Shown: positions 14,968 to 36,600, counted from the stretch's first letter. The stretch is DNA of 64,000 nucleotides from an uncultured Acidobacteriota bacterium (GCA_963755195.1 CAVWIZ010000008.1:688957-752956); one strand, 5' to 3'. The notes: a model not told the origin generated them from the letters alone. Numbers and translations: made by a program.

Positions 14968-15227
14968 CGGATACCGGGCCTTCGACCACGCTGCCGGTGC
15001 GCTCGGCTGACGAGTCCGGCGTCTTTACGCCACACAAACAACTGATCCAAGAATCCGAAGATCAGCGCGCAAGGGCCAAATCCCGAGCTTTTTTGCTGTC
15101 ATACGAACGTCATACCTCGTGTAGAGTGTTGCTGCACAGGTCGAGGCGATAGGCAGCTGTCTATCGTCTCTCGGCCCGTCTGAAACAACCTTTTCGGAAG
15201 CCAATGAGCCAAGGAGTCCAGCGAACA

Positions 15228-18200
15228 ATGCGCACGATCATCAGGACACTGGTACTGGCAGGCTATAGCCGCGATACTTCCGCAGCGCCGCGTGGGCCCA
15301 GGCGGCCCTCGCCGGCACCGTCAAGGACGCGTCGGGCGCCGTGCTGCCCGGGCGTCACCGTCGAAGCGTCGAGCCCGGCACTGATTGAAAAGACCCGGTC
15401 GGCGACGACCGACGCCACCGGGCAGTACCGCATCGAGAGCCTGCAGCCGGGCACCTACACGGTGACGTTCACGCTCGCCGGCTTCTCGACACTGAAGCGC
15501 GAAGACGTCGAGCTGTCGGGCAGCGGGCGTCGTCACGATCGACGCGGACATGAAGGTCGGCGGCGTCGCGGAGACGATCACCGTCACCGGCGAGACGCCG
15601 GTCGTCGACGTGGCGAGCACGACGCGCACGGTCACGCTCGACAACGAGACGATGCGGAACCTGCCGGCCGTTCGCAGCTACAGCTATGTGCTCACGACCG
15701 TGCCGGGCCTGCAGTCGAACATCACCGACGTCAACACCGGCCCGGTGTTCGCGATCTTTCCCGTGCACGGCGGCCGCGGCGTCGAGTCGCGCCTCACGGT
15801 GGAAGGCCTGAACATCAGCAACCCGCCGGGCGGCAACCAGCCGCCGAACTACACCGCCGACATCGGCAACGCGACGGAAGTCACGGTGCAGACGGCGGGC
15901 GGCCTCGGCGAGTTCGAGACCGCGGGCGTGCAGATGAACATCGTGCCGAAGCAGGGCGGCAACAGCATGAGCGGCCTGTGTCGCGGCCTCCGGCTTCTCG
16001 AAAGGCATGCAGTCGAACAACTACTCGTCCGACCTGCAGGCGCGCGGCGCGGGTGCGCCGAACCCGACCTACCACGTCTACGACGTCAACGCGGCAGTCG
16101 GCGGGCCGATCCTGAAGGACAAGCTCTGGTTCTTCATGAGCGTCCGCCAGCAGGGGACGCGCCGCAACATCCTGAACGTCTACTACAACAACAACGCGGG
16201 CGATCCGACGAAGTGGACCTACGCGCCGGATTTCAACCGGCCGGCCTTCTACGACCGCCAGTGCGAGAACTACACGCCGCGCATCACGTGGCAGGCGTCG
16301 TCGAAGAACAAGTTCACGTTCTCGTGGGACGAACAGCCCGTGTGCCGCACGTGCAGCGGCACGGCGTCGTTCAGCGGCTCGCCCTCGTCCGACGACGGCC
16401 CCGGAAGCGGACGGCCACGGCGAGTTCAGCCCGCAGCGCGTCCAGACCATGCGCTGGACGAATCCGATGACGAGCCGGCTGCTCCTCGAAGCCGGCCTCG
16501 GCAACACGTACTATCAGTGGGGCGACCGCGAGCTCGATCCGAATCCGACCCGCGATCTGATTCGTGTGACGGAAACCCAGGCGGTCATCAACCCGCAGGG
16601 GACGGTCGGGTCGATGACTTACCGCTCGCAGAACTGGCTGATCAACCAGACCGACGGCGCGAACTGGTTCCTGAACGCGTCGTATGTCACCGGGTCGCAC
16701 AGCATGAAGTTCGGCTACCAGGGCAACTGGTGGCGCGACGATCGGGAGATCCACGCGAATACGCAGAACCTGGCGTACACCTTCACCCGTGGCATGTCCG
16801 AATACGATCACCGAGTACGCGAATCCCTACTTCAACAACGGGCGCGCGGCGATGACGTCGTTCTTCGCGCAGGATCAGTGGACGATGAAGCGGCTGACGC
16901 TGCAGGGCGCGATCCGCTACGACCATCCGTGGAGCTGGTTCCCGGCGGTGACGCAGCCGAAGAGCACGTTCTTCCCCGGCGTCGACTTCGACCGGGCGGA
17001 CGGCGTGACCGGCTACAACGACATCACGCCGCGCTTCGGCGCCGCGTATGACGTCCTGCGGCAACGGCAAGACGGCGCTCAAGCTCAGCGTCGGCAAGTA
17101 CCTGCAGGGCGCGAGCGTCGGGCAATCTCGTGGCGAACGCGAATCCGTCGCTCCGCATTCCGGGCGGCGACGCCGCGGCGTTCGCGCAATCCGATCGGTG
17201 ACCCGCACAGTGGACGGACACCAACGGCAACTTCGTCCCGGACTGCAACCTGCAGAATGCGGACGCGCAGAGCCCGGCGACGACCGGCAGCATCGACACC
17301 TGCGGCGCGATCAGCAACGTGGCTGTTCGGCTCGAACCAGTTCGTCGGCGCGAACTTCGACCCGGGCGTGCTCAGCGGGTGGGGCGTGCGTCCGTCGGAC
17401 TGGTCGTACGGCGTGTCGGTGCAGCAGCAGCTCTTCCCGAAGGCGTCGGTTGAAGTCGGGTACTACCGCCGCACGTTCGTCAGTACACGACCGACGACGG
17501 TGACCGACGACCTCAACGTCGGACCGAACGACTTGACGCCGTTCTTCCTGACGGCGCCGAGCCGACGCGCGTCTGCCGGGCGGCGGCGGATACCAGGTCG
17601 GGCCGCTGTACAACCAGACGCCGGCGGCGTTTATGCGGGTGCAGGATCTGCTGATCAAGTCGACGAAGGACGTCGGCGACGACACGCGCATCTTCAACGG
17701 CGTGGACGTGACGTTCAACGTGCGCACCGTGAGAGGCTTCACCTTCTCGGGCGGCACCAGCACCGGCAAGGTCGTCAACGACTGGTGCTCGGTTCGGTCG
17801 GCGATTCCCGAGGTGGGACAGTTCATCCTCAACCCGTATTGCCACGTCGAGTCGCCGTTCCAGACGTCGTTCAACGGTCAGGCCTCGTACATCGTCCCGA
17901 AGGTCGACGTGCTGATCAGCGGCGTCTATCGCGATCGTCCCATCCTCAACGGGACGCCGAACAACGCCAGCGACCGACCAGCTCGGCGGCTCGACTGGCC
18001 GCGAACCTGACGTTCACCGCGACGGATGCGTTCGGGCAGGCGATCGCACAGCAGATCGGCCGGCAACCTGACGGGCGGCCCGTTCACGGTGAACCTGATC
18101 ACTCCGGGCGCGATGTACGGCGGCGGGTCGATCTACGGCGACGCGCAACCGGAACATCGATATCAGCATCAAGAAGATCATCCGCCTGGGTAGCGCGGCG

Positions 18201-18357
18201 CCTCACGGCGGGCCTCGACATCTACAACCTGGTGAACGCCGATACGACGCTGTTCTACAACACGGCGTACGTGCCAACCGCCAACAACGCCTGGCTCACG
18301 TCGCTGGGGTACATGAACCCGCGCGTCTTCCGCATCGCGGGCGAGTTCGCCTTCTAG
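15228..18357 (+). CDS. TonB-dependent receptor, Oar-like (frameshifted)
   Basis: GVTVEASSPALIEK, ETITVTGETPVVD, GGPILKDKLWFF, QDQWTMKRLTLQGAIRYD, C-terminal PRVFRIAGEFAF. Confidence 0.85.
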
Positions 18358-18367
18358 AGTTCGCCTC

Positions 18368-18403
18368 ACCGATGGAGCCTGCACGATTGCAGGCTCCATC
18401 GGT
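18368..18403 (+). terminator. Perfect 16-bp hairpin after the first TBDR
   Basis: accgatggagcctgca-cgat-tgcaggctccatcggt; no strong U-tract. Confidence 0.65.
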
Positions 18404-18628
18404 TCTCAGCTCGGCACGAGCTTGCCCGCCAGCGCGCGATTCTCCGCCATGTGGCATGTCAGATCTGCTCGCCCGACCTCCAAGAATCCAGATTCTTGAA
18501 TCCTGAATCTTCTGAATTGAAACGCGGTTGACATTGTGTATTTACAATGCACAACCGGTGCGCTAGTGTGTGCTCACAGTTAACGGAACGATCGAGATTT
18601 CCGCTCATCTGGAAGGAGAACCCGCGGT

Positions 18629-21600
18629 ATGCGAACCGTCACGAAGTGTCTGGCGATCCTCGTCGTCCTGTTCCTCCCCGCCACCGTGTTGGCGCAAGCC
18701 TCGTTGACAGGCACTGCACGTGACGGATCGGGCGCCGTGCTGCCCGGCGTCACCGTCGAGGCCTCGAGCCCGGCGCTCATCGAAAAAACCCGCACCGCCG
18801 TCACCGACGGCACCGGACAGTACCGCATCATCGACCTGCGTCCCGGCACCTACGAGGTGACCTTCACGCTGACCGGCTTCAGCACCGTCAAGCGCGAGGG
18901 CATCGAGCTCACGGGCTCGTTCGTCGCGACGATCAACGCCGACCTGAAGGTCGGCGCTCTCGCCGAGACGATCACGGTCACGGGCGAGACGCCGGTGGTC
19001 GACGTCCAGAGCGCGAAGCGCGAAGTCGTGTTGAACAATGACGTCATCCAGACGCTCCCGGCCACGCGCTCCGCGGGCGCGCTGCTCAACGCCGTGGCCG
19101 GACTGCAGGTCGACACCAACGGCCCGGCGCTGTCGCCGACGATGACGTTCTTCAACGCGCACTCGAGCACCATCAATTCGAACTTCGTCGCGGGCGAAGG
19201 GCGCTACACCGTGAACGGGTTCCCGGTGAGCGCCTCGCGCAGCGGCGGCCCGTCGTCCTATGTCTACGACACGGCGAACGCGCAGGAAGTCGGAGTGACC
19301 GTTGGCGGCGGCATCGGCGAGAGCGACATCGGCGGGCCGTCGATGAACATCATCCCGAAATCAGGCGGCAACGCGTTCAAGGGCTCGGCCTTCCTCAGCA
19401 GCGCCGGCACGTGGTCGAGCGGCGACAACCTGACCACCGACCTCAAGGCGCTCAACCCGAACCTGCAAGCAGACGCCCGGCATCATGAGCGCGTACGACT
19501 GGAGCGGAGCCTACGGAGGACCGATCGTCAAGGACCGCCTCTGGTTCTTCGGCTCCTACCGCGCGCTCGACACGCAGACTGCGCAGGACGGCATCGTGGC
19601 GAACAAGTACGCCGGCGACCCGCTGCACTGGGACTGGGCGGCGGACAATCCAACGACCACGCGCCTCGTGCAGGATCGCCAGATGATCATCGGCCGCATC
19701 ACGGCGCAGCTCAGCAAGAGCCGCTTCTCGTTCAACTCGGAGTACCAGCACCGCTGCGAGGGCACGCCGCTGAAGGTCGACACGCAGGGTTGCCACGACC
19801 GCGGCGCGGACTGGATCGGTCTCGGCAACAACGCGGCGCCCACCCAGATGTCGCCCGAAGCGACGTCCACCGCCGCACGCGGATATTTCGACGTGCCGTT
19901 CTACGTCAACCAGGGCACGTGGACGATGGCGGCGAGCAACAAGCTGCTGTTCGAAGCCGGCTTTCAGGCGTTCCGGTACCAGCCGATCTTCGGGCATCCG
20001 CCGCCTGACGGCGTCACGGGCCTGATTCCGGTGACGGAGCAGTCAAACGCGATCAACGCCGCGACGGGCCTGCCCTACGCGCCCGTGGCGACCTACCGCT
20101 ATCGCGGCGTGGAATCATGGGGTCCGGCGAGCGGCAAGAACAACGACATCGCCGGGTCGATGCTCGTACGTCACCGGGGCCCACAGCGCGAAGGTGGGCT
20201 TGCAGTCCCGCCGGCTCGACCTGCAGGACGACGATCTGGCGGGCCAGACGCAGCTCGGCTATCGATTCAACCAGGGCGTCCCGAATGCGGTCAGTTACTA
20301 CCTGCCGGAGATGGGCCGCCGGACGATCACGTACAACACCGGCGCCTACGTCCAGGATACGTGGACGCACAACCGCCTGACGCTGCAGGGGGCCCTCCGC
20401 TACGATCGCGTGACGAGCTACGCGCCCGTCGAAGGGAACGGCACGTTCGGGAAGTCGTCGTTCCTGAACCCGCAGCCGATCACGATCGTCGAGACGCCGG
20501 GCGTGCAGGCGTTCAACGACATCACGCCGCGGGTGGGCGTCGCCTACGACCTGTTCGGGAGCGGCAAGACGGCCATCAAGCTGAACTGGGGCCGCTACCT
20601 CGCGTATGCGGCGAACGACTCGCCGTATACGTCGACCAACCCCGGCGCCACGATCACGCGCAACGTGCAGAACCGCGGCTGGAACTCCTCAGTTGCGGCC
20701 GGCGGCAACGGCGACAAGGTCGTCGACTGCAACCTGCTCAACCCGAATGCCAACGGCGAGTGCGCCGCGGCAGTCGGCACGGCGCGGACCTTCGGTCAGG
20801 CCGGCGCCGCGACCATCGTCGACCCGGCGGTGCTGAACGGCTGGGGCGTGCGTCCGAACGACTATCAGACCACGCTGACGCTGCAGCACCAGATCGTGCC
20901 GCGCGTGTCGGCCGACGTCAGCTACACGCACCGGACGTTCCACGGCTTCTTCGTCACCGACGACCTGGCCCGCAACGCGAGCACCGCGTACGAAACGTAT
21001 ACGCTCACCGCACCGAACGATCCACGGCTGCCGAACGCAAACCAGCCGATCACGTACTACACGGTCAAGGCGGCGGCCAACGCGACGGCGCAGACGATTC
21101 TGCGGCCGGAGACGTTCTTCGGCCCCGAGCGGGACAGCCACTGGAACGGATTCGACGTGACGGTGAACGCGCGGCTGCGCCAGGGCCTCACGCTGCAGGT
21201 CGGCACCTCCACCGGCGGCGCCGTCGTCGACACCTGCGCGACGGTCACGACGTTCAACAACGTGGGCGTCGGCGGGCGTCGAGGCCGGGCCCGATCCGCG
21301 CAGCTGCCGCAACGTCGATCCGTGGCAGACGACGGTGCGCGGGCTGGCGAGCTACACGATTCCGAAGATCGACGTGCTCATCAGCGGCACGGTGCGCTCG
21401 CAGCCGCCGCTGCAGCTGACCGCCAACTGGGTGGTGCCGAACTCGGTGATCAGACGCCTCGCTCGGCCATCTGCCGGCGGGCGCGACGGCCACGGGCACC
21501 ACCACGCTGGCGTTGCTCGCGCTCGCCGACTCGAACAAGCTGTACGTCGATCAGCGCCGAACGCAGATCGACATGCGCTTCGCAAAGGTCCTGCGGTTCG

Positions 21601-21782
21601 GCCGCACGCGGTCGGACATCGGACTCGACCTCTACAACCTGTTGAACACGAACTACGCGACCGCGTTCAACACGACCTACACCTACAACACGGACAACGC
21701 GCCAAGGGCCGCCGGGTGGGGTACACCGACAGGCATCTTCCAGCCGCGGTTCGTGCGGATCAACTTCACGCTGGACTTCTAG
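18629..21782 (+). CDS. TonB-dependent receptor, Oar-like (frameshifted)
   Basis: Signal peptide, GAVLPGVTVEASSPALIEK, GGPIVKDRLWFF, QDTWTHNRLTLQGALRYD, C-terminal PRFVRINFTLDF; GGAG RBS. Confidence 0.85.
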
Positions 21783-21957
21783 TATCAGGATTCGCGCTCA
21801 CAGGGCTGATCGCCGCGACACCGCGGCGATCAGCCAGTCTCTCTTCAGCCATTCCTGCCGTATCGCGACACTGAACAGTCACTGAACACCTCTGTAATCG
21901 GTCCGGTTGGCCCAATTGGCGTAAGCAATCTATAATCTCTGCCTCGTTATCAGGCTC

Positions 21958-22908
21958 ATGGGGACGAAGCGAATCATCGCGGTTGTGGGGGCGACCGGCA
22001 AACAGGGCGGAAGTCTTGCGCGGGCGCTCCTCGGCGACCATGCGGGCGACTTCGCGCTGCGCGTGCTGACGCGAAAACCCTCAGGCGATCGCGCCCAGGC
22101 GCTCGCCCGCCTCGGCGCCGAAGTGGTCTACGCCGACGCTGACGATCTCGGCGCGCTCAAGCGCGCGTTCGCCGGCGCGTACGGCGCCTACTGCATGACC
22201 GATTTCTGGGGCGGGCACGGCGACCCCGAGCGTGAGCGCGTCCAAGGAGCGACGATGGCCGAAGCGGCGCGCTGCACGGGAGTGCAGCACGTCATCTGGT
22301 CGACGCTCGAAGACACGCGCCGCTACGTCCCGCTGGCCGACTCGCGGCTGCCGACGCTGCTCGGCAGATACAAGGTGCCGCACTACGACGGCAAGGGCGA
22401 AGCCGATGATGCCTTCCGCAGCCTTGACGTGCCGACCACGTTCTTTCTGACGTCCTTCTATTGGGAAAACCTGCTGAACTTCCCCGGCATGGGACCGAAA
22501 CGAAACGCGGCCGGCGAGCTCGTCTTCGCGATGCCGATGGCCGACGGGAAACTGCCGGGCATTGCGGTCGACGACATCGGACTGTGCGCACTCGGTGTGT
22601 TCCGGCAGACGTGCAACATCGGACAGACGATCGGCGTCGCCGGCGAACATCCGACCTGCGAGCAGATGGCGGCGTCGCTCACGAGGGTGCTTGGGCAACG
22701 CGTCCGCTACGAGAACGTCGATCCGGTCGCCTTCCGGACGTCGGATTTCACGGGGGCTGCTGAACTGTCGAACATGCTGCAGTTCAAGCGCGATTTCCAG
22801 GACGTCTTCTGCGGGACCCGCAACGTCGAGCGTTCGAGACAGCTCAACCCGGCGCTACAGACCTTCGACCAGTGGCTCGCCCGCCACGCGGGCCGATTCA
22901 CCCTCTAG
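21958..22908 (+). CDS. NmrA/HSCARG family NAD(P)-binding protein
   Basis: VVGATGKQGGS, WSTLED, VPHYDGKGE, TSFYWEN motifs. Confidence 0.9.
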   Translation: MGTKRIIAVVGATGKQGGSLARALLGDHAGDFALRVLTRKPSGDRAQALARLGAEVVYADADDLGALKRAFAGAYGAYCMTDFWGGHGDPERERVQGATMAEAARCTGVQHVIWSTLEDTRRYVPLADSRLPTLLGRYKVPHYDGKGEADDAFRSLDVPTTFFLTSFYWENLLNFPGMGPKRNAAGELVFAMPMADGKLPGIAVDDIGLCALGVFRQTCNIGQTIGVAGEHPTCEQMAASLTRVLGQRVRYENVDPVAFRTSDFTGAAELSNMLQFKRDFQDVFCGTRNVERSRQLNPALQTFDQWLARHAGRFTL

Positions 22909-23891
22909 CGAACCGTCGGCGATGCCGCCGGCTTCTCCGCCGACCGCTGGGCGCTCAGGATGTTCGGCATCGCGTAGTTGCCTTCGTGGCACGCGTACTC
23001 GAAGACCTGCTGGCTGCGATCCTTCCTGGTCAGCTTCATCGTGAACGTCCACGGCCGCACCCAGGTGTGCGGGGCCTCGAGCGTCACGCTCCAGTCCACC
23101 GCCGTCGCCGACAGCGGCTTGAAACGCTCGGTCATCTTCAGGTCGTCGCTCGCGCCGCGATAGGCGCTGCGCGACGTGAAGTTCGTGGTCTCGACGACCA
23201 GCGTGTCGCCTTCCCAACGGCCGCGGGCGTCGCCGAGATCGAGACGGATGGCCTTGCCGAGGTGCGGACGGCCGTCGAGCGGAATGACGCGCGTTTCGTG
23301 AATCATCTCGTAGCGGATGGCCGCCCAGCCCTGGCCCTGCTCGATCTCATAGTTGCTGCCGTAGCCGGCCGGCATCATCGAGTTCGGAATGCCGCGCGTG
23401 ATGCAGCGATCGTAGAGGCCCATGTCCTCGTAGCTGTCGAACGGGCCGAGCGGGTTGGCGTTCGTGCTGATGCCGCGCTGCGGGCGCCGCAGACGCTCCT
23501 GCCCTTCCGGCGTCAGCGCGGGGATCCTCCCGTCTGGCGGATCGGTCACGAGCCAGACGCGGCTGTTCCGGCGCTGGAATGAATCGAAAATCAGATGAGT
23601 CGGAGGCCGGAGGCCGCCGGCGAATTCCGTGCCCGCGACGCCCGCATTGAACTGCTCGGTGCGCTGCTCGTTGATCTTCTTCAGCTCGGCAGGCGTGATG
23701 TCTTCCATCCGGCGGCCGGCGAATTCAGACGGCCGTTCGAGCGGCGTCCCCGTCTCATCGTCGTTGCTGTAGACACCGCTGAGATCCGGATCGCCCCACG
23801 GCGTGCGAGGCGTCTTGAACGTCTGGGCGGACGTGAGAGCCACGGCGACGAGCGTGAGCAGTGCGGCGGTCACGACAAATCGGTTCAACAT
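22905..23891 (-). CDS. Secreted hypothetical protein (PWGDPDL...EYACHEGN family)
   Basis: Signal peptide; DRCITRG, HETRVIPLDGRPH, GRWEGDTLVVETTNF, FEYACHEGN; GGAG RBS. Confidence 0.75.
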   Translation of the reverse strand: MLNRFVVTAALLTLVAVALTSAQTFKTPRTPWGDPDLSGVYSNDDETGTPLERPSEFAGRRMEDITPAELKKINEQRTEQFNAGVAGTEFAGGLRPPTHLIFDSFQRRNSRVWLVTDPPDGRIPALTPEGQERLRRPQRGISTNANPLGPFDSYEDMGLYDRCITRGIPNSMMPAGYGSNYEIEQGQGWAAIRYEMIHETRVIPLDGRPHLGKAIRLDLGDARGRWEGDTLVVETTNFTSRSAYRGASDDLKMTERFKPLSATAVDWSVTLEAPHTWVRPWTFTMKLTRKDRSQQVFEYACHEGNYAMPNILSAQRSAEKPAASPTVR

Positions 23892-23910
23892 GGCCACTCC
23901 AGGCGGAACA

Positions 23911-25973: not shown

Positions 25974-25997
25974 GTGATGGAGCTCCAAAGTGAAACG

Positions 25998-27023: not shown

Positions 27024-27046
27024 CCCTAACCCCTAGCCCCTAACCT

Positions 27047-28228
27047 CTACGTGGTGCGTATGAGCGACATCCGCGGATCGGCCGCCAGGCTCTCGGTGTA
27101 GGGAATCCCGAGTTCCTTCTTGACGACATTCACGCCCTGCACGAGCGCCACCATCTTGTAGAAGGCGTGGCGGCGGCTCATGCCTTCGCGGCCCATGCCG
27201 CAGTCGGACGAGAGGACCAGCCGTTCTGCCGGGATCACCTTGAGGGCGTCGCGCACGAGCGTCGCGACCTCCTCGGGCGACTCCACCTGCAGTGTGTGAT
27301 GGTCGATCGCGCCGATGCCGACCTTCATCTTGGTGATGTGCTTGCCGACATCCGCCAAGTCCGCGCAGTTGCTGCTCTTCATCTCGAACGTGATGACGTC
27401 CGCGTCCACCTGGTTGAGGAGTTCCAAGGCCGGCTTGTACGTCTGGACCGCCGAGAACATGCGCTGCTGCGACGGGTTGCCCCAGCACGTGTGGCACCAG
27501 ACTTCGGTCTTCGCGCGGAGACCTTTGACGGTGTTGTTGAACACCTTCAGCATGAACTCGGGGTTGATGACCGGGTCTTTGTAGCCCCGCGCCGCGAGCA
27601 GATGAATCTGCGGCTCCTCCATCTGGATCACCTGGCAGCCGGCATCGGCGAGGTCGTGCAGTTCCTGGTTGAACGCTTCGCTCATCGCCATGATCCGCGA
27701 CGGGAGGTCCTTGTAGTGCTCGTCCTGTACCGCAAACGCCACGAGCTCGGGCGTGACGGTGCCGAACTTGACGGGCTTCGTGGTGAGGCGCTGCGCCGCT
27801 TTGAAGATCTCCGCGTATTGCATTTCGCCGGGGCCAATCGGCCCGACGATCTTCGGCATCACGCGCGCTTCGAGGTAATCGTGGAGAATGTGCCCGCGCG
27901 GAAACCCGATGCCGCCCGCGCCGACCCGCGCCAGTTTCGGATGCGTCGCGTCGAATCCGGACATGTGGTGCGGCGGATAGCTCGTCCAGCTCTGGCCGCC
28001 GACGTCCTGGTCGAACCGGCAGTCGCCGTCGGTCACGATGTCGAGGCCCGCAACCTCCTGTTCGCGCAGGTAGACCGAGAGCGCGTCCACGTATTGCTCG
28101 CGGAACCGGCTGATGACCATCGCGTCGAGAAACGACTTGAGGCCGAGATTTTCGGTGTACCAGCTCGGGCGCGGCAGCGAACCCGTCACGGTCGTCGGCA
28201 TCACGGTGCCGGCAGTAGCTTTCAGCAT
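27047..28228 (-). CDS. Cobalamin-independent methionine synthase II-like (MetE C-terminal fold) Zn enzyme
   Basis: TTVTGSLPRP, GLDIVTDGD, IQMEEP, HTCWGN (HxC), SSDCG (Cys ligand); 393 aa, catalytic domain only. Confidence 0.85.
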   Translation of the reverse strand: MLKATAGTVMPTTVTGSLPRPSWYTENLGLKSFLDAMVISRFREQYVDALSVYLREQEVAGLDIVTDGDCRFDQDVGGQSWTSYPPHHMSGFDATHPKLARVGAGGIGFPRGHILHDYLEARVMPKIVGPIGPGEMQYAEIFKAAQRLTTKPVKFGTVTPELVAFAVQDEHYKDLPSRIMAMSEAFNQELHDLADAGCQVIQMEEPQIHLLAARGYKDPVINPEFMLKVFNNTVKGLRAKTEVWCHTCWGNPSQQRMFSAVQTYKPALELLNQVDADVITFEMKSSNCADLADVGKHITKMKVGIGAIDHHTLQVESPEEVATLVRDALKVIPAERLVLSSDCGMGREGMSRRHAFYKMVALVQGVNVVKKELGIPYTESLAADPRMSLIRTT

Positions 28229-28360
28229 GATTGAACACCCCTCTGGAATCGTAGTCGCATGGACAACATACGATCATGTCACGCGGAAATGTACAGTGTC
28301 AATGCACACGCCGCGTCCCGAGAGCACTTCCTCAGAGTTTCTGTAATAATCCGTGACCTG

Positions 28361-29035
28361 ATGGCGACAAAAGGGCGCAAGCCCGAACGGGACAGCAACA
28401 AGTCCGCCGCCAGCCGGGCCAAGGCCGCGAGCGGCATCGGTCCCAGGTTGCGACAGGCACGCGAGCAAAAGAAGATGTCGGTCCGGGGATTGGCTCGCTA
28501 TGTCGGCGTCTCGCCGAGTCTAGTGTCGCAGATCGAGCGCGGCCGTGTCATGCCGTCCGTCGGAACGCTCTATGCGATCGCGAACGAGCTTGGCCTGGTC
28601 GTCGACGACCTCTTCACCGGCACGCAGCCACGCAGCAAGGGCCGCGAGCGGGTCGAGACGGCCGCCGATATCCAGAATCCCGTGCTGAAGATCGGGCAAC
28701 GCAAACGAATCCGCCTCGCCGATGGCGTGCAGTGGGAACGTCTGACGCCGACGCCTGACCAGGACGTCGAATTCCTGGTGGTGTCCTATAACATCGGCGC
28801 CGAATCGTGTGCGAAGGACGCGTTGATCCGCCACGGCGGCAAGGAGTACACGTTCATGATTCGAGGCCGGCTCGGGATCAAGATCGGCTTCGAGGAATTC
28901 GAGCTCGGCCCTGGAGATTCCATCGCGTTTGACGCGCAGATGCCCCATCGCCTCTGGACCATCGGCCAGGAACCGGCCGAAGCCATCTGGGTGGTCCTCA
29001 ATCGTCACGGCGACAATCGCGTTCAGCCGTCCTGA
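28361..29035 (+). CDS. XRE-family HTH regulator with C-terminal cupin domain
   Basis: GPRLRQAR...VSPSLVSQIERG...PSVGTL (HTH_3); HGGKE...LGPGDSIAFDAQMPHR (cupin). Confidence 0.9.
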   Translation: MATKGRKPERDSNKSAASRAKAASGIGPRLRQAREQKKMSVRGLARYVGVSPSLVSQIERGRVMPSVGTLYAIANELGLVVDDLFTGTQPRSKGRERVETAADIQNPVLKIGQRKRIRLADGVQWERLTPTPDQDVEFLVVSYNIGAESCAKDALIRHGGKEYTFMIRGRLGIKIGFEEFELGPGDSIAFDAQMPHRLWTIGQEPAEAIWVVLNRHGDNRVQPS

Positions 29036-29052
29036 CATCGTTCGGGTGCAAC

Positions 29053-29085: not shown

Positions 29086-29139
29086 CAGAAGAACCGAAAA
29101 GTTTGACGCTACCGGCTCGTTGACGCCGGTCTTTCCAAT

Positions 29140-32100
29140 TTAGAAATCGTATCGAACCGCAAACTTCACGAACCTCGGCTGGATGACGGTCAGCGGCAGC
29201 CGCCAGACCGGGCCGAACGATCCGAGTTCCGCGATCACCGCGTCCGAGTTGAACGCGTTATAGAGGTCGAGGTTCAGATCGAACTTTCCCTTCCCGACAT
29301 TCAGGACCTTCGTGAACCGCAGATCGATCTGGTTGAGCCGGTCGCCCCACATCGTGCCGGGCTGGATCAGGTTCACGTTGGCCTGAGCGTTGGTGAACTG
29401 CCGCGGCAGGTCCGTCGTCGCCAGCCGGTTCCCGTTGTTGTAGATGTTGGTCGCCGGGACCTGCGGGCCGGGCAGGCTCTGGAACGTACCGGCCACGCGG
29501 ATGCCCCACCACGGCGTGAGATAGCTGGCGAGGCCCTTGTAGAGCGGTTGAACCGGCGTCTCCTGGTGACAGAAGGATTGCGAACTGAGCGAGCCGAGCG
29601 GCGCAATGGGCGCCTGGACTCCGGCCGGTAACGCCGCCGGAATCGACAGCACCTCTGGCACGGCAGCGACGATCGCGCAGTTGTCCGTCATCCCCTTGCC
29701 GGCGCTGACGCCGCCCTGGAGGAGCAGACCGTTCCGCAGCCGCGCGTCCACGCTCACATCGAAGCCGTCCCAGTGCTGGAACACAGCGCCGAAGGTGTCG
29801 GCGCTCTTCATGACGTTCTTGGGCGCGACGACGAAGTTGGGATCGTAGAGGCCACCGATCTTCTGTCCGGCGTTCGGGAGCGTGAAGCCATTGCCGGTGT
29901 TGCTGGGCACCGTCACCGAGAACTGCGTGAAGTCGCTCGCGGCGAGCGCCTCGTTGTCCAGCACGTTGAAGTTGCCGCCGATCCGCCTGAAGTATCCGAT
30001 GTTGGCGGAGATACGCGGCGCAATCTGCTGCTGGACGCCGACCGAGAACTCCCAGTTGTAGGGCCGCACACCCCACCCCTGCATGATGGCCGGGGAGTAC
30101 ACCGTGCCCGGCACCGCCGTGCCGAACGTCGGAACGAGCCACTGCCCGCACTCGCCGTTCGCGGTGCTGATCGTCAGGTTGCAGTCCGGCACGAAGTTGC
30201 CCGTACGCGGATCTCCAGCACCGAAGAGCGAGTCGCTCCAGGAGCGGTTGGTCTGCGTCGAGATCGTCGAAGCCGGGTTGTTGGCTTGGGCGTAGCGGAT
30301 CGAGTCCTGCTCGACCCCACGGCTGATGCTCGCCTTGATGGCCGTCTTGCCGTCGCCGAGCAGATCGTACGCCGCGGAGACGCGCGGATCGAAGTCCTTC
30401 CAGTTCGGCACGTTCTCGACCGCCGCAAAGGAGGTGTTTCGATTTGGCGCCCACTTGTGCGGTGCCGCCGTGAACGGCTCGGTGGACTCGTTCTGGAAAT
30501 CGAGTCGGATGCCGCCGCTCAGCGTCAGCCGGTTTATCGTCCATCGATCCTGCGCGTAGATGCCCAGGTTGTGGTTGAGATTCATCTGCCACCCATAGAC
30601 CGGCGCCTGGACCGTGACGAATGCCGGCGCGCCCGCCGTGGTGGTGTACCAGATGCCGCCGGTGGAGTCGTTGTTGTCACCGCGCCAGAAATGGCCGCGC
30701 TGCAAGTCGAAGCCGACCTTGGCGTTGTGAGAGCCGGTGACGTAGCTCATCGAGCCAGTGAACGATTGCGACGGCAGGCGGTCGTCGTTATTCGCTCCCG
30801 TCGGCGCGCGGTAGAAGAAGTTGCCGGCCGTCTGCTCCGTAATCGAGATGCAGGCGGGGGCCAGCGAACCCTGCGACGGGCACTGGCCAACCAGTTCACG
30901 ATTCAAGTCGATCGTATCCGGGCTCTCGCCCGCCATCACGCCCACCTCGAACAGCACCTTGTTGGTCGCGGCATAGGTCCACTTCGTCGTGGACAGCTGC
31001 GTGTGCCACGTCGTGATACGTGCCGCTTCAGGCGACGCGGCGAAGATCTGGAGGAGCCAGTGCGGATCGACCTTGTACTGATAGGCGTACCAGCTCGAGA
31101 TCTTCTGCTTGTCAGAGATCGCCCACGTGATCCGCCCGTTGTTATCGTACGTGTAGGTGCCCGCGTACCCCTGCTTCGAGAGGTCGTTGGTCCGAGTGAT
31201 CGCAGTTACGTCGGTCGGGTAATAGCGCGACGCGAGGTAGTACTCGTTCGTGAAGTAGCGCGACGTCGCGTAGAACCACAGCTTGTCCTGCTTGATGGGA
31301 CCGCCGAAGGCGCCGTTGAGGTCGTACAGCGTCTTGAGCGTCGACGACGCCGTCTGGACGCCCCGCGCCTTGAGGTTGTCCGTCACGTTCGAGGCCTGGA
31401 GCTTCGGACCCGAACCGTTCACGAGGAACGAGCCGCTGAACCGGTTGCCGCCCGACCGCGGAATCGCGTTCATGATCACGCCGTTGGTGCCGGTCTCCGC
31501 CATCTGACCGGACATCTGCACGTTCACCTCGTCGAACAGCAGCGGTGACAGGCTCATGTTGGTCAGGTTGGAGCTGATGTACATGTTGCCGATCCGCATG
31601 CCGTCGATGAGCGACACGCCATCTCCGGGGTTGTTGCCATGCGCGGAAACCTGGGCGCCGGTCTGGTCGCCGAGGACGCCGCCAACGTCGGTGTTCGATG
31701 CCCGGACGGCAGGCACGAGCGCCGCCATCTGGATCCACGACCCGCCGGAGGGGAGCTCCTTGAACGCCTGAGCCGTCATCGTCCGAGTCTGAGCGGCAGA
31801 TTGAATATCGACGACCGGCGTTTCGCCCGTAATGGTGATGGTTTCGGCCAGGGCGCCCACTTTCAGCTCGGCGTTCACCTGGGCGTTGACCGCGACCGAC
31901 ACTTCCACGCCTTCCTGCCGGACCGTGCTGAAGCCCGCCAGGGTGAACGTGGCGGAGTAGATGCCGGGCGGGAGGTTCACGATTCGATACTGCCCCGCGC
32001 CGTCAGTGACGGCGGTGCGCAGCTTTTCGATGAGCGCCGGACTTGCAACCTCGACGCTCACGCCGGGCAGCACCGCGCCGGATGGATCCTTTGCGACGCC

Positions 32101-32190
32101 GGCAATCGTGCCGAGGGTTTGTGCCGGGCTCGTCACGGCGAACGCCAGCAACATCAAGATGGCCAACCCGACTCTAGTCTTCAGGCGCAT
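29140..32190 (-). CDS. TonB-dependent receptor, Oar-like (intact)
   Basis: Uninterrupted ORF; signal peptide MRLKTRVG..., GGPIKQDKLWFY, QDRWTINRLTLSGGIRLD, C-terminal PRFVKFAVRYDF. Confidence 0.9.
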   Translation of the reverse strand: MRLKTRVGLAILMLLAFAVTSPAQTLGTIAGVAKDPSGAVLPGVSVEVASPALIEKLRTAVTDGAGQYRIVNLPPGIYSATFTLAGFSTVRQEGVEVSVAVNAQVNAELKVGALAETITITGETPVVDIQSAAQTRTMTAQAFKELPSGGSWIQMAALVPAVRASNTDVGGVLGDQTGAQVSAHGNNPGDGVSLIDGMRIGNMYISSNLTNMSLSPLLFDEVNVQMSGQMAETGTNGVIMNAIPRSGGNRFSGSFLVNGSGPKLQASNVTDNLKARGVQTASSTLKTLYDLNGAFGGPIKQDKLWFYATSRYFTNEYYLASRYYPTDVTAITRTNDLSKQGYAGTYTYDNNGRITWAISDKQKISSWYAYQYKVDPHWLLQIFAASPEAARITTWHTQLSTTKWTYAATNKVLFEVGVMAGESPDTIDLNRELVGQCPSQGSLAPACISITEQTAGNFFYRAPTGANNDDRLPSQSFTGSMSYVTGSHNAKVGFDLQRGHFWRGDNNDSTGGIWYTTTAGAPAFVTVQAPVYGWQMNLNHNLGIYAQDRWTINRLTLSGGIRLDFQNESTEPFTAAPHKWAPNRNTSFAAVENVPNWKDFDPRVSAAYDLLGDGKTAIKASISRGVEQDSIRYAQANNPASTISTQTNRSWSDSLFGAGDPRTGNFVPDCNLTISTANGECGQWLVPTFGTAVPGTVYSPAIMQGWGVRPYNWEFSVGVQQQIAPRISANIGYFRRIGGNFNVLDNEALAASDFTQFSVTVPSNTGNGFTLPNAGQKIGGLYDPNFVVAPKNVMKSADTFGAVFQHWDGFDVSVDARLRNGLLLQGGVSAGKGMTDNCAIVAAVPEVLSIPAALPAGVQAPIAPLGSLSSQSFCHQETPVQPLYKGLASYLTPWWGIRVAGTFQSLPGPQVPATNIYNNGNRLATTDLPRQFTNAQANVNLIQPGTMWGDRLNQIDLRFTKVLNVGKGKFDLNLDLYNAFNSDAVIAELGSFGPVWRLPLTVIQPRFVKFAVRYDF

Positions 32191-32415
32191 GGGCTTCTTC
32201 CCCCTGTTTGTGGGACGGAAAACACGACAATGTGTAGTTTCACGAAACACTAGCGCATCAGGTGTTCAGCGTCAATACGGTTCAGGGCCTAATTTCGGGT
32301 CTTGAAATCGCAGAACAAGGATTTGGATTTCGCCGCCTTAGACAGCCCGCTTGACGGCACGTTCAGCCGCCATTAACATCTGGCCCGGTTCTCCAACACC
32401 TTACAAGCAGGCCCG

Positions 32416-33519
32416 ATGACCACCAGAATCGTTGACACCCTTCTCCCCACCACCATGGTCGGCTCGTATCCGCGACCGCATTGGTTCAGACATCAGCTGC
32501 TCGGCCGCGACGTTCGCGTCGCGTTCAAGGAAGTCCAGCACGAAGAGGCCTACGACGACGCGGTCGCCACCGTCATCCGCGACCAGGAAGAAGCGGGTCT
32601 CGACATCGTCACCGATGGCAACATGTGGTACGACGACTACGTCGGCTCCATCGGCGCGTTCTGCTGGTACCTATACGAGCGCATCCCGGGATTCGAGCCG
32701 GCCCGCGAGCCGCATCCCTCGTTTGTCAACGCCGAAGCCAGCTTCAGCAAGGCCATGTTTGACGACTGGGGCGGCGTCATCAACAGCGGCCCGGTGTCCC
32801 GCGGCCCGATCCGGTGGGCGGACCTCTATAAGGTGGCCCGGAGACACGCGAAGGTGCCGGTAAAAGTGTCAGTGGGGGCCGGTCCGGTGAACCTCGCGTG
32901 GCACGCGTACTTCAAACACTACAAGAACGCCAAGGAGCTCAGTCTGGCACTGGCGCCGGTGTTCAACGCGGAAATGAAGGAGCTCGTCGCGGCGGGCGCC
33001 ACGTACTTGCAGATTGAGGATCTCGGCGCCTGGATGCCGCTCTTCACGAACGACAAGAACGACTACGTGTGGATCAAGGACGCGATCGCCCAGTGCTGCG
33101 ACGGAGTGAAGGCCAGGATTGGCTGGCACTTCTGCTTTGGCAACGCGTGGGGCAACGACCTGCTCAGCGGCTCATTCCCGGAAGGCTACCAGACGGTGCT
33201 CCCGAACCTGTTCGATACCCCCGGCATCAACGAGTTCGTGCTCGACTACGCGAACCGGGACATGGCTGGTATCGAATTCCTGAAGAAGCTGCCCAAGGAC
33301 ACCGGCGTCCAGGTTGGCGTCCTCGACATCCGCACCAACGCGATCGAGACGCCGGAGCAGATCGCCAAGCGTATTCGCAAGGTGCTTGCGCACGTGCCGG
33401 CGGAGAAGGTCACCCTCAGCACCGACTGCGGCATGAAGCCGCTCGCGCGCATGGTCGCCAAAATGAAGCTGCGCGCGCTCGCCGACGCGGCCGCCATCGT
33501 CCGCAAGGAAATCAAATAG
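32416..33519 (+). CDS. Second cobalamin-independent methionine synthase II-like Zn enzyme
   Basis: TTMVGSYPRP, GLDIVTDGN, HFCFGN (HxC), STDCG. Confidence 0.85.
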   Translation: MTTRIVDTLLPTTMVGSYPRPHWFRHQLLGRDVRVAFKEVQHEEAYDDAVATVIRDQEEAGLDIVTDGNMWYDDYVGSIGAFCWYLYERIPGFEPAREPHPSFVNAEASFSKAMFDDWGGVINSGPVSRGPIRWADLYKVARRHAKVPVKVSVGAGPVNLAWHAYFKHYKNAKELSLALAPVFNAEMKELVAAGATYLQIEDLGAWMPLFTNDKNDYVWIKDAIAQCCDGVKARIGWHFCFGNAWGNDLLSGSFPEGYQTVLPNLFDTPGINEFVLDYANRDMAGIEFLKKLPKDTGVQVGVLDIRTNAIETPEQIAKRIRKVLAHVPAEKVTLSTDCGMKPLARMVAKMKLRALADAAAIVRKEIK

Positions 33520-33521
33520 AG

Positions 33522-34322
33522 TTACTTCGCGGCGCCGCACGGCCGCGGATTCCAGCCGGCCGCATCTCGCTGCTTCTTGAATTGGTACGTCTTGATGTAC
33601 GCCGGCTGAAAATAGGCAGGGTCATCGACCATCGTCGTCACGACGAGATATTCCTGGCCGGTGCCGTCGATGAGGCGGACGAAGTACTCCGTGATGGTCG
33701 TATTCGGACCGTAGGGAACGCCGTTCTTGCGGACGTATCCGGGACGCAGATGATTGGTGACCACCTTCAGCTGGCCGACCCGGGCGGCGCCTCCCCGAGC
33801 CGGAGCCGGCCCTCCTCTTCCAGCCGCCGGGAACTCCCAGCGGGCGAGCGAGTATCCCTGCCATGAGGCTTCGGCCGGCGGCGGATGCGCGGTCGCGAGC
33901 TGCGGTGTGTTCTCGAAGAAGAACCGGCGCGTCTGCGTGCCGGCGTCGATGTCCATCTTGATCGTGTGGTCGTCGTCCCAGGTGACGTGCAGCCGGGCCG
34001 GCAGCCGCATGATGCCGCCGGCGCCGTACGCCTTGCATTGCTCGCCCGCCGCGGCATCCTTCGCCGGATCCCACTCGTTGGTGACCCGGCGCGCCTCCGC
34101 CGTCACCGGCAGGTAGTCCACATTCCCCTTGGGGGGCGTCAGCATGCGGTAGCGCCAATCGTCCGTGACGAGCGACACCCAATATCCCGCGATGTCAAAC
34201 GGCGCGGCCGTGCGCCCGGCTGCCGGCGGGTTCGGCGGCGCTCCCTGTCCTCGCCCCTGGGCGTGCAGGTGCAGACCGAGCGCAGCGACGGCGAGCGTGG
34301 ACACGATGAGGAGTCTGCGCAC
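33522..34322 (-). CDS. Secreted hypothetical protein
   Basis: Signal peptide; GYWVS, QCKAYGAGG, WQGYSLARWE, GYVRKNGVPY, WNPRPC; resembles the 22905 and 35413 proteins. Confidence 0.7.
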   Translation of the reverse strand: MRRLLIVSTLAVAALGLHLHAQGRGQGAPPNPPAAGRTAAPFDIAGYWVSLVTDDWRYRMLTPPKGNVDYLPVTAEARRVTNEWDPAKDAAAGEQCKAYGAGGIMRLPARLHVTWDDDHTIKMDIDAGTQTRRFFFENTPQLATAHPPPAEASWQGYSLARWEFPAAGRGGPAPARGGAARVGQLKVVTNHLRPGYVRKNGVPYGPNTTITEYFVRLIDGTGQEYLVVTTMVDDPAYFQPAYIKTYQFKKQRDAAGWNPRPCGAAK

Positions 34323-34331
34323 AATGCCTCT

Positions 34332-35402
34332 CTACGATTTCGGATTGAGGCTGCGATACACCGCCTCGACAAACATGTCAGGCGTGTTCGAAGCGCTTCG
34401 TCCGAACCGCCCGTCGTAGTCCCTCGTCAGTTTCGCGGCCTTGATCTGCGGCAGCGTCATGCCCTTCTTGACGGCCGCGCGCACGCGATCGCGCATGATG
34501 GTCACCATGTCGCGGTAATAGGCGACATCCGCCGAGTCGGTGAGGCGGCCATGCCCCGGCACGATCATCGTGCCTCCCTCCATCATGTGCTCGACGACCG
34601 CCATCTCGAGGATCCAGTTCAGCGCATCGACGACGCCTTGAATGCTGCCGCCTTTGTCGACGTCGATGACCGGATAGCTCGTCATATTCAGGACGTCGCC
34701 GGCCGCGAGCACTTCGGATTCGCGGAACTGTACGATGGTGTCGCCGTCGGTGTGCGCCGCCGGCATGTGCCACAGGACGACGCCTTCTCCGTTGAAGAAG
34801 TTCAGCTTGAAGCTCGCGCCTTCGTAGGCTTCGCTCGGCAACGCGGCCGACGGCAAGGGCGATCCCTTTGGCTGGTGCGACGGCGCTTTCTCATGCGCCA
34901 TGATCCAGGCGTCCTGCGGGGCAAGACCGATGTGACTGCGGCCGGCGGCCGAAAACACGGCGTTCCCGCCCATGTGGTCGGCATCGAAACTCGTGTTGAT
35001 GATGCCGACGATGGGCTTGGGCGCGGGCGGCGCCGAGGTCATCTGAAGGAACGTCGAGCTGTTCCACCACGAGCAGCCCTGCACGAGCCCCACGCAGGAT
35101 TTCTGCGGCATCCGCATCGAGGTCACTTGACGATCGAGCGTCCTGACGGCCGCGAGCAGTTTGTCGCTCATGGCCGCGGCCCCCGTGTCGACGAGGAGTA
35201 CGCCGTCTTTGCCGATGGACGCGACGACATTGCTGCCGCCGGCGGTAATCAGCCAGATGTTGCCTTTGACCGGAATCACGCGCACATCACTGCTCGGGGC
35301 GGGCTGTTGTGCGCCAAGGTCGGCGTACCACGGCTGCGCCAGGATCACCACGGCCGCGATCGCCAGAACAGATGCGCGGAGCGTTGTCACTGCGGCAGTC
35401 AT
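34332..35402 (-). CDS. Secreted MBL-fold (cyclase-like) protein with a degenerate metal motif
   Basis: GVLLVDTG, INTSFDADHMGGN, AHTDGD, AGD, VPGHG. Confidence 0.8.
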   Translation of the reverse strand: MTAAVTTLRASVLAIAAVVILAQPWYADLGAQQPAPSSDVRVIPVKGNIWLITAGGSNVVASIGKDGVLLVDTGAAAMSDKLLAAVRTLDRQVTSMRMPQKSCVGLVQGCSWWNSSTFLQMTSAPPAPKPIVGIINTSFDADHMGGNAVFSAAGRSHIGLAPQDAWIMAHEKAPSHQPKGSPLPSAALPSEAYEGASFKLNFFNGEGVVLWHMPAAHTDGDTIVQFRESEVLAAGDVLNMTSYPVIDVDKGGSIQGVVDALNWILEMAVVEHMMEGGTMIVPGHGRLTDSADVAYYRDMVTIMRDRVRAAVKKGMTLPQIKAAKLTRDYDGRFGRSASNTPDMFVEAVYRSLNPKS

Positions 35403-35412
35403 CTCGGGCCTC

Positions 35413-36309
35413 TCAGCGGCCAATGTTTGCGCCGCGATCGCCGTTGGTCCACGCGCTATCCCGGAGTTTCTGCCCGTACTCGGGATAGATCGTCTCGACA
35501 CCGCCGGTCGCGGCGTTCGCCGCGCCGCCGTACCGGGTGCGGATGTCCTTGAGGAACGGATTCTCGCCCAACTGGAAGTGCGGCACCTTGCCCTTCTCGA
35601 GGCCTTCATACACGGAGGTGCAGGGATGCGGCGGCACGAGCGAGTTGACCGTCAAGCGATACTCGGCGCTCCGAATGAGCGGCTCCGCCAGATAGATCGG
35701 ATCGTGAATGATGTTGACCCAGGTCAGGATGTCGCCGCGGCGGATCCACCACGACGTGACGGTCGCTTCGTCGGTGGCCATCGCGCCATTCCGGCGGATG
35801 TAGTCTTCCTTCAAGTGCGACGTCTCGATCCTGAGCATGTCGCCTTCCCACTTCGCCGTCGAGAATCCGCCCCACGAGTGCGGGGCCTCGGCCGGAGGAG
35901 GATCGCGGCCATCGAGGTACACGGGCATGTTCGTGGATTGATGCCACTCCGGCTGAAACGCCACGATTTCGCGCGAGTACGGATCGACTTCCTTGCTGAT
36001 GCGCAACTGGGTCGGCCCCCGATAGATGTACGCCCATCCGTGCGGCCGGCACTGATATTCAGGCAGCGACAGGATCGATGCGTCCCAGGTTTCAGCCCTG
36101 GCGAGGCCGTCCGCATTGAGCGGCAAGCCATAGAAGTCGCCGACCCACGGGTTCTCGCTGTTGTCCTGCGAACGGACCACGGTCCACTCGCCGGAGAAAT
36201 CCGTGGTCACGCCAGGGGGGGCGTTCTGCGCGACGCCGTTTCCCGCGGCGAAGGCCGCCCACAGTGCTGCCGTGAGAGCGACGACGATCAGACGTCTTGT
36301 CTTGCGCAT
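35413..36309 (-). CDS. Secreted hypothetical protein
   Basis: Signal peptide; DFSGEW, QCRPHGW, GFSTAKWEGDML, IRRNG, PHPC; GAGG RBS. Confidence 0.7.
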   Translation of the reverse strand: MRKTRRLIVVALTAALWAAFAAGNGVAQNAPPGVTTDFSGEWTVVRSQDNSENPWVGDFYGLPLNADGLARAETWDASILSLPEYQCRPHGWAYIYRGPTQLRISKEVDPYSREIVAFQPEWHQSTNMPVYLDGRDPPPAEAPHSWGGFSTAKWEGDMLRIETSHLKEDYIRRNGAMATDEATVTSWWIRRGDILTWVNIIHDPIYLAEPLIRSAEYRLTVNSLVPPHPCTSVYEGLEKGKVPHFQLGENPFLKDIRTRYGGAANAATGGVETIYPEYGQKLRDSAWTNGDRGANIGR

Positions 36310-36600
36310 CGGATAGCCTCGGTACGCGCCGTTTTTTGCGTGAAAGAGCCGCCGCATGGACCGTATCTCAATGATTCGTTCAGTGTCAATGAACAGCCCC
36401 GACGCCCAATCCTTCCTGAGGTGTGCATCGGAATCGTAAGGATTCCGCGAGATTTCGTGCGGGCCGGCTAGAGCGTCCTTCTCACGGCGTCGAATGCCCA
36501 CACGGCCGCTCGCAGCGCTCGCAACGATCGCAGCGTTTAGGGGCATTTAAGCGGAATTCTCGGCGGTCACTGCGTCCGCCGCGGTGATCGTTCTTACGGG

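Follow-up and report, generated by a model that had tools for sequence, protein, structure and literature searches.

A conserved palindrome around the -35 hexamer, likely read by an XRE-cupin regulator, marks a predicted dispersed regulon in an uncultured Acidobacteriota bacterium

When a single palindrome recurs before most of the genes that surround a small regulator, is that regulator the protein that reads it, and how far does the resulting regulon extend? The question was raised by a stretch of 64,000 nucleotides (the window, meaning this whole stretch; GCA_963755195.1, CAVWIZ010000008.1:688957-752956) from the 6.66-Mb genome of an uncultured Acidobacteriota bacterium; the G+C content of the window is about 65%, and the host is likely a member of the Vicinamibacterales. 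An XRE-cupin regulator gene lies between 15.1 and 36.4 kb of the window, and an earlier reading made from the DNA alone (the sequence-only reading) had listed six copies of a 19-bp palindrome around it, had interpreted them as operators of the regulator, and had proposed that they delineate a regulon of about 21 kb. The results described below point to a conserved operator with the -35 hexamer at its core. The XRE-cupin protein probably binds it as a dimer and would block RNA polymerase until a small ligand occupies the cupin domain. In the following, the genome under study is designated G000 (the window being G000:C8:688957-752956), other genomes are designated G001, G002, and so on, L numbers denote fetched stretches, and site coordinates count from the first letter of the window.

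The six listed 19-mers were found exactly at 15120, 18535, 28290, 32231, 32360, and 36377, as were the weaker ones at 21859 and 32263, and their common pattern was above chance. With both strands counted, YGTNNA-N7-TNNACA had 10 matches at 7 places in the window, compared with 1.44 +/- 1.52 matches after shuffling, and none of 100 shuffles reached 10. In the whole genome, this loose pattern occurred at 67 places, 5 of which were in the 21.5-kb block, with a background of about 9 per Mb; the strict form, TGTNNA-N7-TNNACA, occurred at 19 places, including 3 in the block. A matrix, derived first from seven foreign sites and later from 34 sites outside G000, was run over G000, and the genomes of relatives were scanned with it in the fetched stretches only. 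The top eight hits in G000 scored 28.5 to 33.7 bits and were followed by a gap down to 21 bits. Hits above 25, 20, 15, and 8 bits numbered 8, 10, 19, and 81, respectively, in G000 and 0, 1, 3, and 55 in a reversed-genome control; the genome-wide enrichment for which the sequence-only reading had proposed to scan was therefore evident in the eight hits above 25 bits versus none in the reversed genome. Three of these eight strongest hits were located in the block, at 28290 (rank 4), 36377 (rank 7), and 18535 (rank 8). The six listed sites were unequal in matrix strength, ranging from 32.6 down to 0.1 bits, and since 8 bits was exceeded 55 times in the control and 81 times in G000, 15120 and 32360 could not be called by the matrix alone. 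Pattern matches at 41646 and 41657 were taken as chance, both scoring below 8 bits by the matrix. Second-tier hits at C1:743517, C2:1243424, and C4:385977 (17 to 21 bits) were not assigned to the regulon; the first two lay within open reading frames, with no clear GC3-rich genes, and no Rfam match was found at either of them.

The anatomy of the element was derived from 30 distinct sites in ten genomes, found with a search pattern that left positions 1, 4, 5, 7, 15, 16, and 19 free. The 19-bp element is a near-perfect palindrome with the consensus TGTNNAGTGTCAATGNACA and the ideal form TGTTCAGTG-N-CACTGAACA. At the free positions, T1 was present in 23, G7 in 25, and A19 in 19 of the 30 sites, position 15 was G or A only, and position 16 was mostly C or A, while the eight columns on each side were random, giving the element sharp 19-bp limits. 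Positions 1-19, 2-18, 3-17, 6-14, 8-12, and 9-11 were paired, 4/16 and 5/15 varied in a roughly complementary manner, and a betaproteobacterial site was a perfect palindrome, GTTCAGTG-G-CACTGAAC. The sole break of symmetry, an A instead of a C at position 13, creates TTGACA on the other strand; this hexamer, at the motif centre, is the -35 box of the adjoining promoter. The CRP/FNR consensus TGTGA-N6-TCACA has 8 bp between TGTG and CACA; a site of this type was rejected on spacing, as TGTG and CACA are 11 bp apart here.

Promoter geometry was consistent with this placement. On the TTGACA strand, the hexamer was followed after 17 to 18 bp by TAnnnT, AACAAT, or CATGAT; counted by eye, TAnnnT stood at that distance at 15 of 28 sites, compared with 0 of 28 on the opposite strand, and the mean match to TATAAT was 3.36 versus 2.18. 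The TTGACA strand was that of the adjoining gene at nearly all loci, the exceptions being L037 and L044. The overlap of sites with -35 boxes described in the sequence-only reading, as expected for a repressor of this family, was thus borne out, and its caveat that part of the similarity comes from the -35 hexamer was correct, yet the flanks beyond the hexamer were conserved too. TAGTGT at 17 bp was common to the promoters of TonB-dependent receptors 2 and 3, and several promoters were near-copies of each other beyond the motif, with a shared GGTGGAACAAT tail at a gallate dioxygenase gene, a gene for a secreted 307-aa protein, and in relatives. Such near-copies, together with a motif centre that is itself TTGACA, would fit an extended promoter element spread by duplication of a promoter cassette, with no dedicated factor reading the arms. 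We regard this explanation as highly improbable: a one-sided element has no need of the palindromic pairing seen in the arms, the arms also occur with other centres (TGTTCATATGCAATGAACA in G016, CGTGCA-N7-TGCACG at two Conexibacter loci, and the site over the -10 box at 32231), and the flanks directly outside the 19 bp are random.

The candidate reader of the palindrome is encoded at 28361..29035 on the plus strand. The 224-aa protein consists of a helix-turn-helix of the XRE/Cro-C1 type (PF01381 HTH_3, 54.5 bits against a cut-off of 23, residues 30-79) and a C-terminal cupin domain (PF07883 Cupin_2, 45 bits against a cut-off of 27.2, residues 155-212), in which H158, E162, and H196 were invariant in 20 orthologues from three phyla and could form a metal or ligand site. 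The start at 28361 was backed by the N termini of orthologues and by a conserved TATAAT. This hexamer (TAATAAT in G000; window 28345-28363, and upstream in L003-L006) precedes the ATG by 7 to 11 nt, the distance in G000 being about 10 nt, so the mRNA would be leaderless or nearly so. A homodimer modelled via the cupin domains scored 0.67, compared with 0.01 for the best of 3 controls, although related dimers have been solved and this likeness alone may explain the score. Among solved proteins, 20 of 30 pairs of one chain attained the mark cleared by this score, compared with 1 of 23 single chains. Runs agreed in at least 90% of the contacts, with a partner pLDDT of at least 76. Sequence searches of the PDB with the regulator and with MetE-like 1, an enzyme of the block, retrieved generic relatives only.

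Comparison across genomes tied the motif to this regulator. Orthologues (68 to 82% identity) were present in eight other genomes of the same family, in which sites preceded the same gene families as in G000, and TGTNNANTGTCAATGMACA was kept upstream of the XRE gene amid unconserved DNA in eight of the nine genomes. Among 41 related genomes, GTNNANTGTCAATNNAC was present in two to seven copies in each of the nine with an orthologue (E <= 5e-88) and in 1 of the 32 without, there as one copy; the reversed pattern, used as a control, gave 0 to 1 per genome. In a further 150 genomes of the class, an orthologue was found in G131 only (60% identity), with two tandem variant sites directly upstream, and single pattern hits occurred in six. 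At the level of loci, 12 of the 22 named loci with an XRE relative carried a hit scoring more than 14 bits in the 470 bp upstream; the ten without one comprised a contig end (L058), L063, and eight Actinomycetota loci. Five of the positive loci were betaproteobacterial (58 to 65% identity), and their neighbouring genes (bicupin, SDR, ABC transporter, OYE, and M24 peptidase) were not those of the acidobacterial loci. Because the Betaproteobacteria keep the motif beside different neighbours, the motif is tied to the regulator and separated from the acidobacterial gene cluster. The recognition helix, SPSLVSQIERG, was identical in Acidobacteriota, Betaproteobacteria, and Gaiellales/Thermoleophilia, and read SASMISQIERG in Conexibacter. 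The proposal that the listed sites are operators of the local XRE-cupin protein was accordingly upheld for operator-like palindromes linked to the regulator by the 12 of 22 loci and the 9 of 9 versus 1 of 32 genomes, and not for 32360. As a separate observation, the regulator orthologue in four betaproteobacterial and Thermoleophilia stretches (L064, L067, L068, and L071) was divergent from a conserved row encoding a double-cupin protein of 300 aa, an SDR, and a Peripla_BP_6 ABC transporter, with 3-hydroxyisobutyrate-dehydrogenase-like, OYE, M24 peptidase, and amidohydrolase genes nearby.

The same comparison bears on the alternative that the palindrome is the operator of a different regulator encoded elsewhere, with the XRE-cupin gene as merely one of its targets. 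The site upstream of the XRE gene is not placed to occlude the XRE promoter, and G024 has copies of the motif with none upstream of its XRE gene, as such a scheme would allow. Against it, the motif accompanies the XRE orthologue in Betaproteobacteria as well, with none of the acidobacterial targets close by, its distribution among the related genomes follows that of the orthologue (9 of 9 with and 1 of 32 without), and no second regulator gene was found in the block or its flanks; we judge a different regulator to be quite unlikely, with a slightly smaller chance than the activator considered below.

Several observations weigh against the XRE-cupin protein as the reader and repressor of all these sites. 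The -10 box of the XRE-cupin gene itself lies 37 bp downstream of the end of the site at 28290, so autoregulation by occlusion is not evident, and in one orthologue-bearing lineage (L009/G024 and L063) no site was seen upstream of the XRE gene. The phyletic count overstates independence, since the nine genomes are kin belonging to 5 genera, and the motif could track the gene cluster instead of the regulator, a link that only the betaproteobacterial loci break. The Gaiellales/Thermoleophilia loci share the recognition helix yet have a degenerate motif match only, which disfavours a simple helix-to-motif rule. Two of the six listed sites, 15120 (10.2 bits) and 32360 (0.1 bits), fell within matrix noise. 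The motif was found before none of three gallate dioxygenase orthologues (91 to 92% identity; G001, G002, and G004), which have a different upstream region, and in none of the five orthologous MetE-like 2 promoters (G001-G004 and G011), whose genes are sited elsewhere and carry TTGACG-17-TAGCAT.

With these points included, binding of the motif by the XRE-cupin protein, and repression relieved by a ligand, remain the likely interpretation. While a dimer occupies the 19-mer, the -35 box would be occluded; once the cupin domain has taken up a ligand, the dimer would leave the operator, and uptake genes and genes for periplasmic and cytoplasmic processing would then be turned on. The protein might instead bind the palindrome as an activator that contacts RNA polymerase at -35. 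Class II activator sites likewise overlap the -35 region, as the sites do here; moreover, the NmrA promoters of G000 and G004 have their site upstream of the -35 box rather than on it, and a site is also present upstream of the promoter of the XRE gene itself. However, activator-dependent promoters usually have poor -35 boxes, and TTGACA was perfect in 28 of 28 pattern-derived sites, where it was forced by the pattern, but also in sites found by the matrix. A second site covers the -10 and start region at receptor 3, and in Pseudomonas aeruginosa, as described in excerpts of PMC7901475, every target gene of the XRE-cupin factors studied was upregulated in the corresponding mutant. Activation is thus considered unlikely.

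The sites of the block differed widely. The strongest predicted operator, at 28290..28308 on the minus strand (32.6 bits, rank 4), lies on the MetE-like 1 promoter (TTGACA-18-CATGAT), and the one at 36377..36395, also on the minus strand (31.5 bits, rank 7), lies on the TTGACA -35 of the promoter of a three-gene operon, whose orthologues in G002, G003, G004, and G011 are likewise preceded by sites (L039, L031, L055, and L044). A third strong predicted operator, at 18535..18553 on the plus strand (28.5 bits, rank 8), lies in the promoter of receptor 2, with the centre TTTACA as the -35 and TAGTGT 17 bp downstream; an orthologous site was present before the G004 relative (L086:1195), and none was found before the three closest receptor 2 homologues (74 to 79% identity; G001, G003, and G011). 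A possible auxiliary site starting from the -10 box of receptor 2, at 18567..18585 on the plus strand (7.9 bits, within noise), was absent from the earlier list; it is placed relative to TAGTGT as 32231 is at receptor 3. The latter, at 32231..32249 on the minus strand, is a predicted operator of medium strength (16.9 bits, rank 15) over the -10 (TAGTGT) and start region of receptor 3, in the score zone above 15 bits with 19 real and 3 control hits. On the TTGACG -35 of the same promoter, 32263..32281 on the minus strand (4.1 bits) is a degenerate operator with a good left half-site and a lost right arm, the decayed positional counterpart of strong sites before the receptor 3 orthologues in G002, G003, and G004.

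The remaining sites were weaker. The candidate operator before receptor 1, TGTAGAGTGTTGCTGCACA at 15120..15138, with no strand assigned (10.2 bits, rank 43), lies within matrix noise and could not be called on that score alone; it nevertheless has orthologous sites in two relatives, since the site in the corresponding position before the G004 relative (L081:1044; 25 bits by the first matrix) has an identical left half, and the G002 relative (L079:1024) is preceded by a site of 21 bits. Before the NmrA-like gene, two perfect 9-bp half-sites, CACTGAACA, form a direct repeat 11 bp apart at 21869..21888 on the plus strand, with copies at 21869 and 21880; counting both strands, the genome has 12 copies of this half-site, of which two are here. 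The best 19-mer before this gene in G000 scored 8.7 bits, in matrix noise, and the NmrA orthologues in G004 and G009 were preceded by full sites. At 32360..32378 on the plus strand, the arms fit YGTNNA-N7-TNNACA, and this arms-only match (0.1 bits, unranked) falls within the spacer and -10 box of the promoter of MetE-like 2 (TTGACG-17-TAACAT). It is a doubtful operator, listed in the sequence-only reading and left without support by five of five orthologous promoters. A functional link of MetE-like 2 to the regulon is plausible from L063, in which its orthologue stands in a single gene row with a receptor, MetE-like 1, and a Gfo/Idh/MocA oxidoreductase (GFO). The MetE-like 2 promoters of relatives (L091-L094 and L097) contain another inverted repeat, GTTCGG-N13-CCGAAC, across the spacer and -10 in at least four of five genomes, which may be the site of another regulator.

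The proposed delineation of a regulon of about 21 kb did not hold, because five of the eight strongest sites were outside the window, at four loci. Two of them, C8:882342 and C8:883743, are located before a gene for a secreted 307-aa paralogue and a VWA-like gene; C8:959253 is located 94 bp before a gallate dioxygenase gene; C4:263925 is located between a gene for a 315-aa paralogue and a row of MFS, 277-aa, and ADH genes; and C8:71730 is located before another receptor gene. Weaker sites on C8, at 960424 and 963733, lie around a gene for a 348-aa paralogue and one or two further receptors. Judged from the distribution of sites, the regulon is predicted to be dispersed over about a dozen promoters marked by the palindrome, with the block as its largest cluster. 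The predicted regulon of G000 would comprise the 14 genes of the block and at least four other loci, the latter contributing two or three more TonB-dependent receptors, an MFS transporter operon, gallate dioxygenase, and secreted paralogues.

The gallate dioxygenase (G000:C8:957858-959159) matched NF009904 with 775.3 bits against a cut-off of 412 over residues 1-428 and is of the fused LigB plus LigA form. Its promoter-operator region (L022:8160-8272, corresponding to G000:C8:959160-959272) was nearly identical to those of the unknown-family genes, with TTGACAC..ACA, about 10 nt, and GGTGGAACAAT. No gallate dioxygenase gene was found in G009 or G016. Since the orthologues lack the motif, membership of this gene in the predicted regulon would be specific to G000, and it looks like a recent recruit.

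The gene names that the sequence-only reading had given for 15.1 to 36.4 kb agreed with profile searches, and its count of about 14 genes was correct. Two TonB-dependent receptors of the CarboxypepD_reg type (PF13620) lie on the plus strand at 15204..18357 (receptor 1) and 18629..21782 (receptor 2), followed on that strand by an NmrA-like NAD(P)-binding protein (21958..22908; PF05368, 144 bits). A five-gene operon on the minus strand (22905..28228; assigned by Pfam and NCBIfam) begins with MetE-like 1 (27047-28228) and continues with GFO (25998-27023), an EboE-type TIM barrel (24777-25988; equivalog NF035939, 400 bits against a cut-off of 250), a secreted SMP-30/SGL-like protein (23911-24801), and a secreted 330-aa protein without a family (22905-23897); the order MetE1-GFO-EboE was kept in L062 and L075, and MetE1-GFO in L063. 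Beyond the regulator gene, an intact receptor 3 (PF13620) occupies 29140..32190 on the minus strand, where an ATG at 32190 is followed by a signal-peptide-like N terminus and the longest open reading frame extends to 32250. MetE-like 2, which consists of the catalytic domain only (PF01717, 87.5 bits), lies at 32416..33519 on the plus strand. The three-gene operon on the minus strand (33522..36309; assigned by Pfam and NCBIfam) encodes a secreted 298-aa protein (35413-36309) and a secreted 266-aa protein (33522-34322), both of no known family, and a metallo-beta-lactamase-fold (MBL-fold) protein (open reading frame 34332-35609), and its gene order was identical in L058, L062, and L075. The block is flanked by pieces of cadherin/HYR surface proteins, LTD proteins, and a penicillin-binding protein.

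The reading frames of receptors 1 and 2 were broken in the assembly at least five and at least four times, respectively. By tblastn, the frame order was 1-2-3-1-2-3 in receptor 1 and 3-1-2-3-1 in receptor 2, the shifts being always +1, and public short-read contigs of relatives were one base shorter at 15978, 16388, 16796, 19466, 20163, and 21269, near the frame junctions. The breaks are therefore likely single-base insertions in the assembly consensus and not old pseudogenes. At most 0.16 of the words sampled from 15100-21800 was present in any one public sequencing run. Further split-looking genes were seen in G000, such as a phosphorylase gene (L023:4066-5901), and at 9888-14967 of the window, surface-protein pieces (cadherin-like, Big_9, HYR, and CarboxypepD_reg) occurred in several overlapping frames, probably representing another gene broken by frame errors.

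Across genomes, the core of the regulon consisted of the receptors, MetE1-GFO-EboE, the operon for the 298-aa, MBL-fold, and 266-aa proteins, NmrA, and the secreted family. Six paralogues of this family had operator sites: those at 22905-23897, 33522-34322, and 35413-36309 of the window, and those at L021:7439-8362, L022:8300-9346, and L023:5977-6924. The family has at least 7,997 homologues, all hypothetical, and no Pfam or NCBIfam model of its own; among the matches listed, the unrelated PF02597 was found on one of 120 homologues. In the Protein Atlas, 30 of the 30 nearest clusters were unnamed. The model of the 330-aa protein had a mean pLDDT of 68, with a beta-rich core near 90, and aligned to FABP/calycin barrels (best VIA Z of 9.7; root-mean-square deviation, 3.3 over 120 residues; Foldseek E of only 3e-3), and no Foldseek match reached E <= 0.001. 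A weak guess, based on the G000-specific gallate dioxygenase, would make a phenolic or methylated compound from plants the substrate of the regulon. Among the literature matches listed, none joined cobalamin-independent methionine synthase with an O-demethylase or gallate. A substrate was also sought in the betaproteobacterial and Thermoleophilia neighbours, and this was given up because no defined pathway could be read from bicupin, SDR, Peripla_BP_6 ABC transporter, OYE, M24 peptidase, and amidohydrolase.

Excerpts of PMC7901475 describe the XRE-cupin factors studied in P. aeruginosa as all being local inhibitors, with palindromic motifs derived for PsdR, PauR, and ErfA and binding mostly in core promoters; 29 genes were regulated by PauR, which had several binding sites and also bound upstream of its own gene. 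A second paper (PMC12565409) counts autoregulation and palindromes among the typical traits of XRE factors. The regulator described here resembles PauR, PsdR, ErfA, and PA0535, as portrayed in those parts of PMC7901475, in having an XRE helix-turn-helix followed by a cupin domain, and shares with them palindromic motifs, core-promoter sites, and neighbouring metabolic or uptake targets, which in the present case were read from sequence alone. It differs from them in its Acidobacteriota host, in its motif, in an operator that is centred on the -35 hexamer itself, and in targets that are mainly TonB-dependent receptors and unannotated secreted proteins. The best NCBIfam hit was PuuR, the putrescine utilisation repressor of Escherichia coli (NF007408), with the helix-turn-helix and cupin domains aligning over residues 25-198; however, at 50 bits against a cut-off of 211 the regulator is not a PuuR equivalog, and no putrescine genes were among the targets. 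In the main texts retrieved by literature searches on XRE-cupin factors and Vicinamibacter, neither the motif nor the regulon was described. The regulon is thus a well-supported further case of the XRE-cupin local-repressor type and, as a principle, nothing new beyond Pseudomonas.

A broader and rather doubtful interpretation is that of a portable promoter-operator cassette, in which one asymmetric base makes TTGACA and by which Vicinamibacterales may wire a large uptake system (five or six TonB-dependent receptors, a secreted FABP/calycin-like family, and MetE-like enzymes) to one small-molecule sensor, with gallate dioxygenase newly captured. If this were true, the capture of gallate dioxygenase would suggest plant polyphenols that yield gallate as the substrate.

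Vicinamibacteria are abundant in soil, with few cultures and almost no known regulation, and they have dozens of TonB-dependent receptors without known cargo; receptor 2 alone had 24 to 45 matches per related genome (E <= 1e-30). The operator groups some of these receptors with enzymes and a secreted family and so offers a handle on what they import. As the motif is specific, with eight strong sites against none in the control, it could be used to trace the regulon in metagenomes. The predicted recruitment of gallate dioxygenase, and of MetE-like 2 with its doubtful operator, only in G000 would indicate turnover of the regulon between close relatives.

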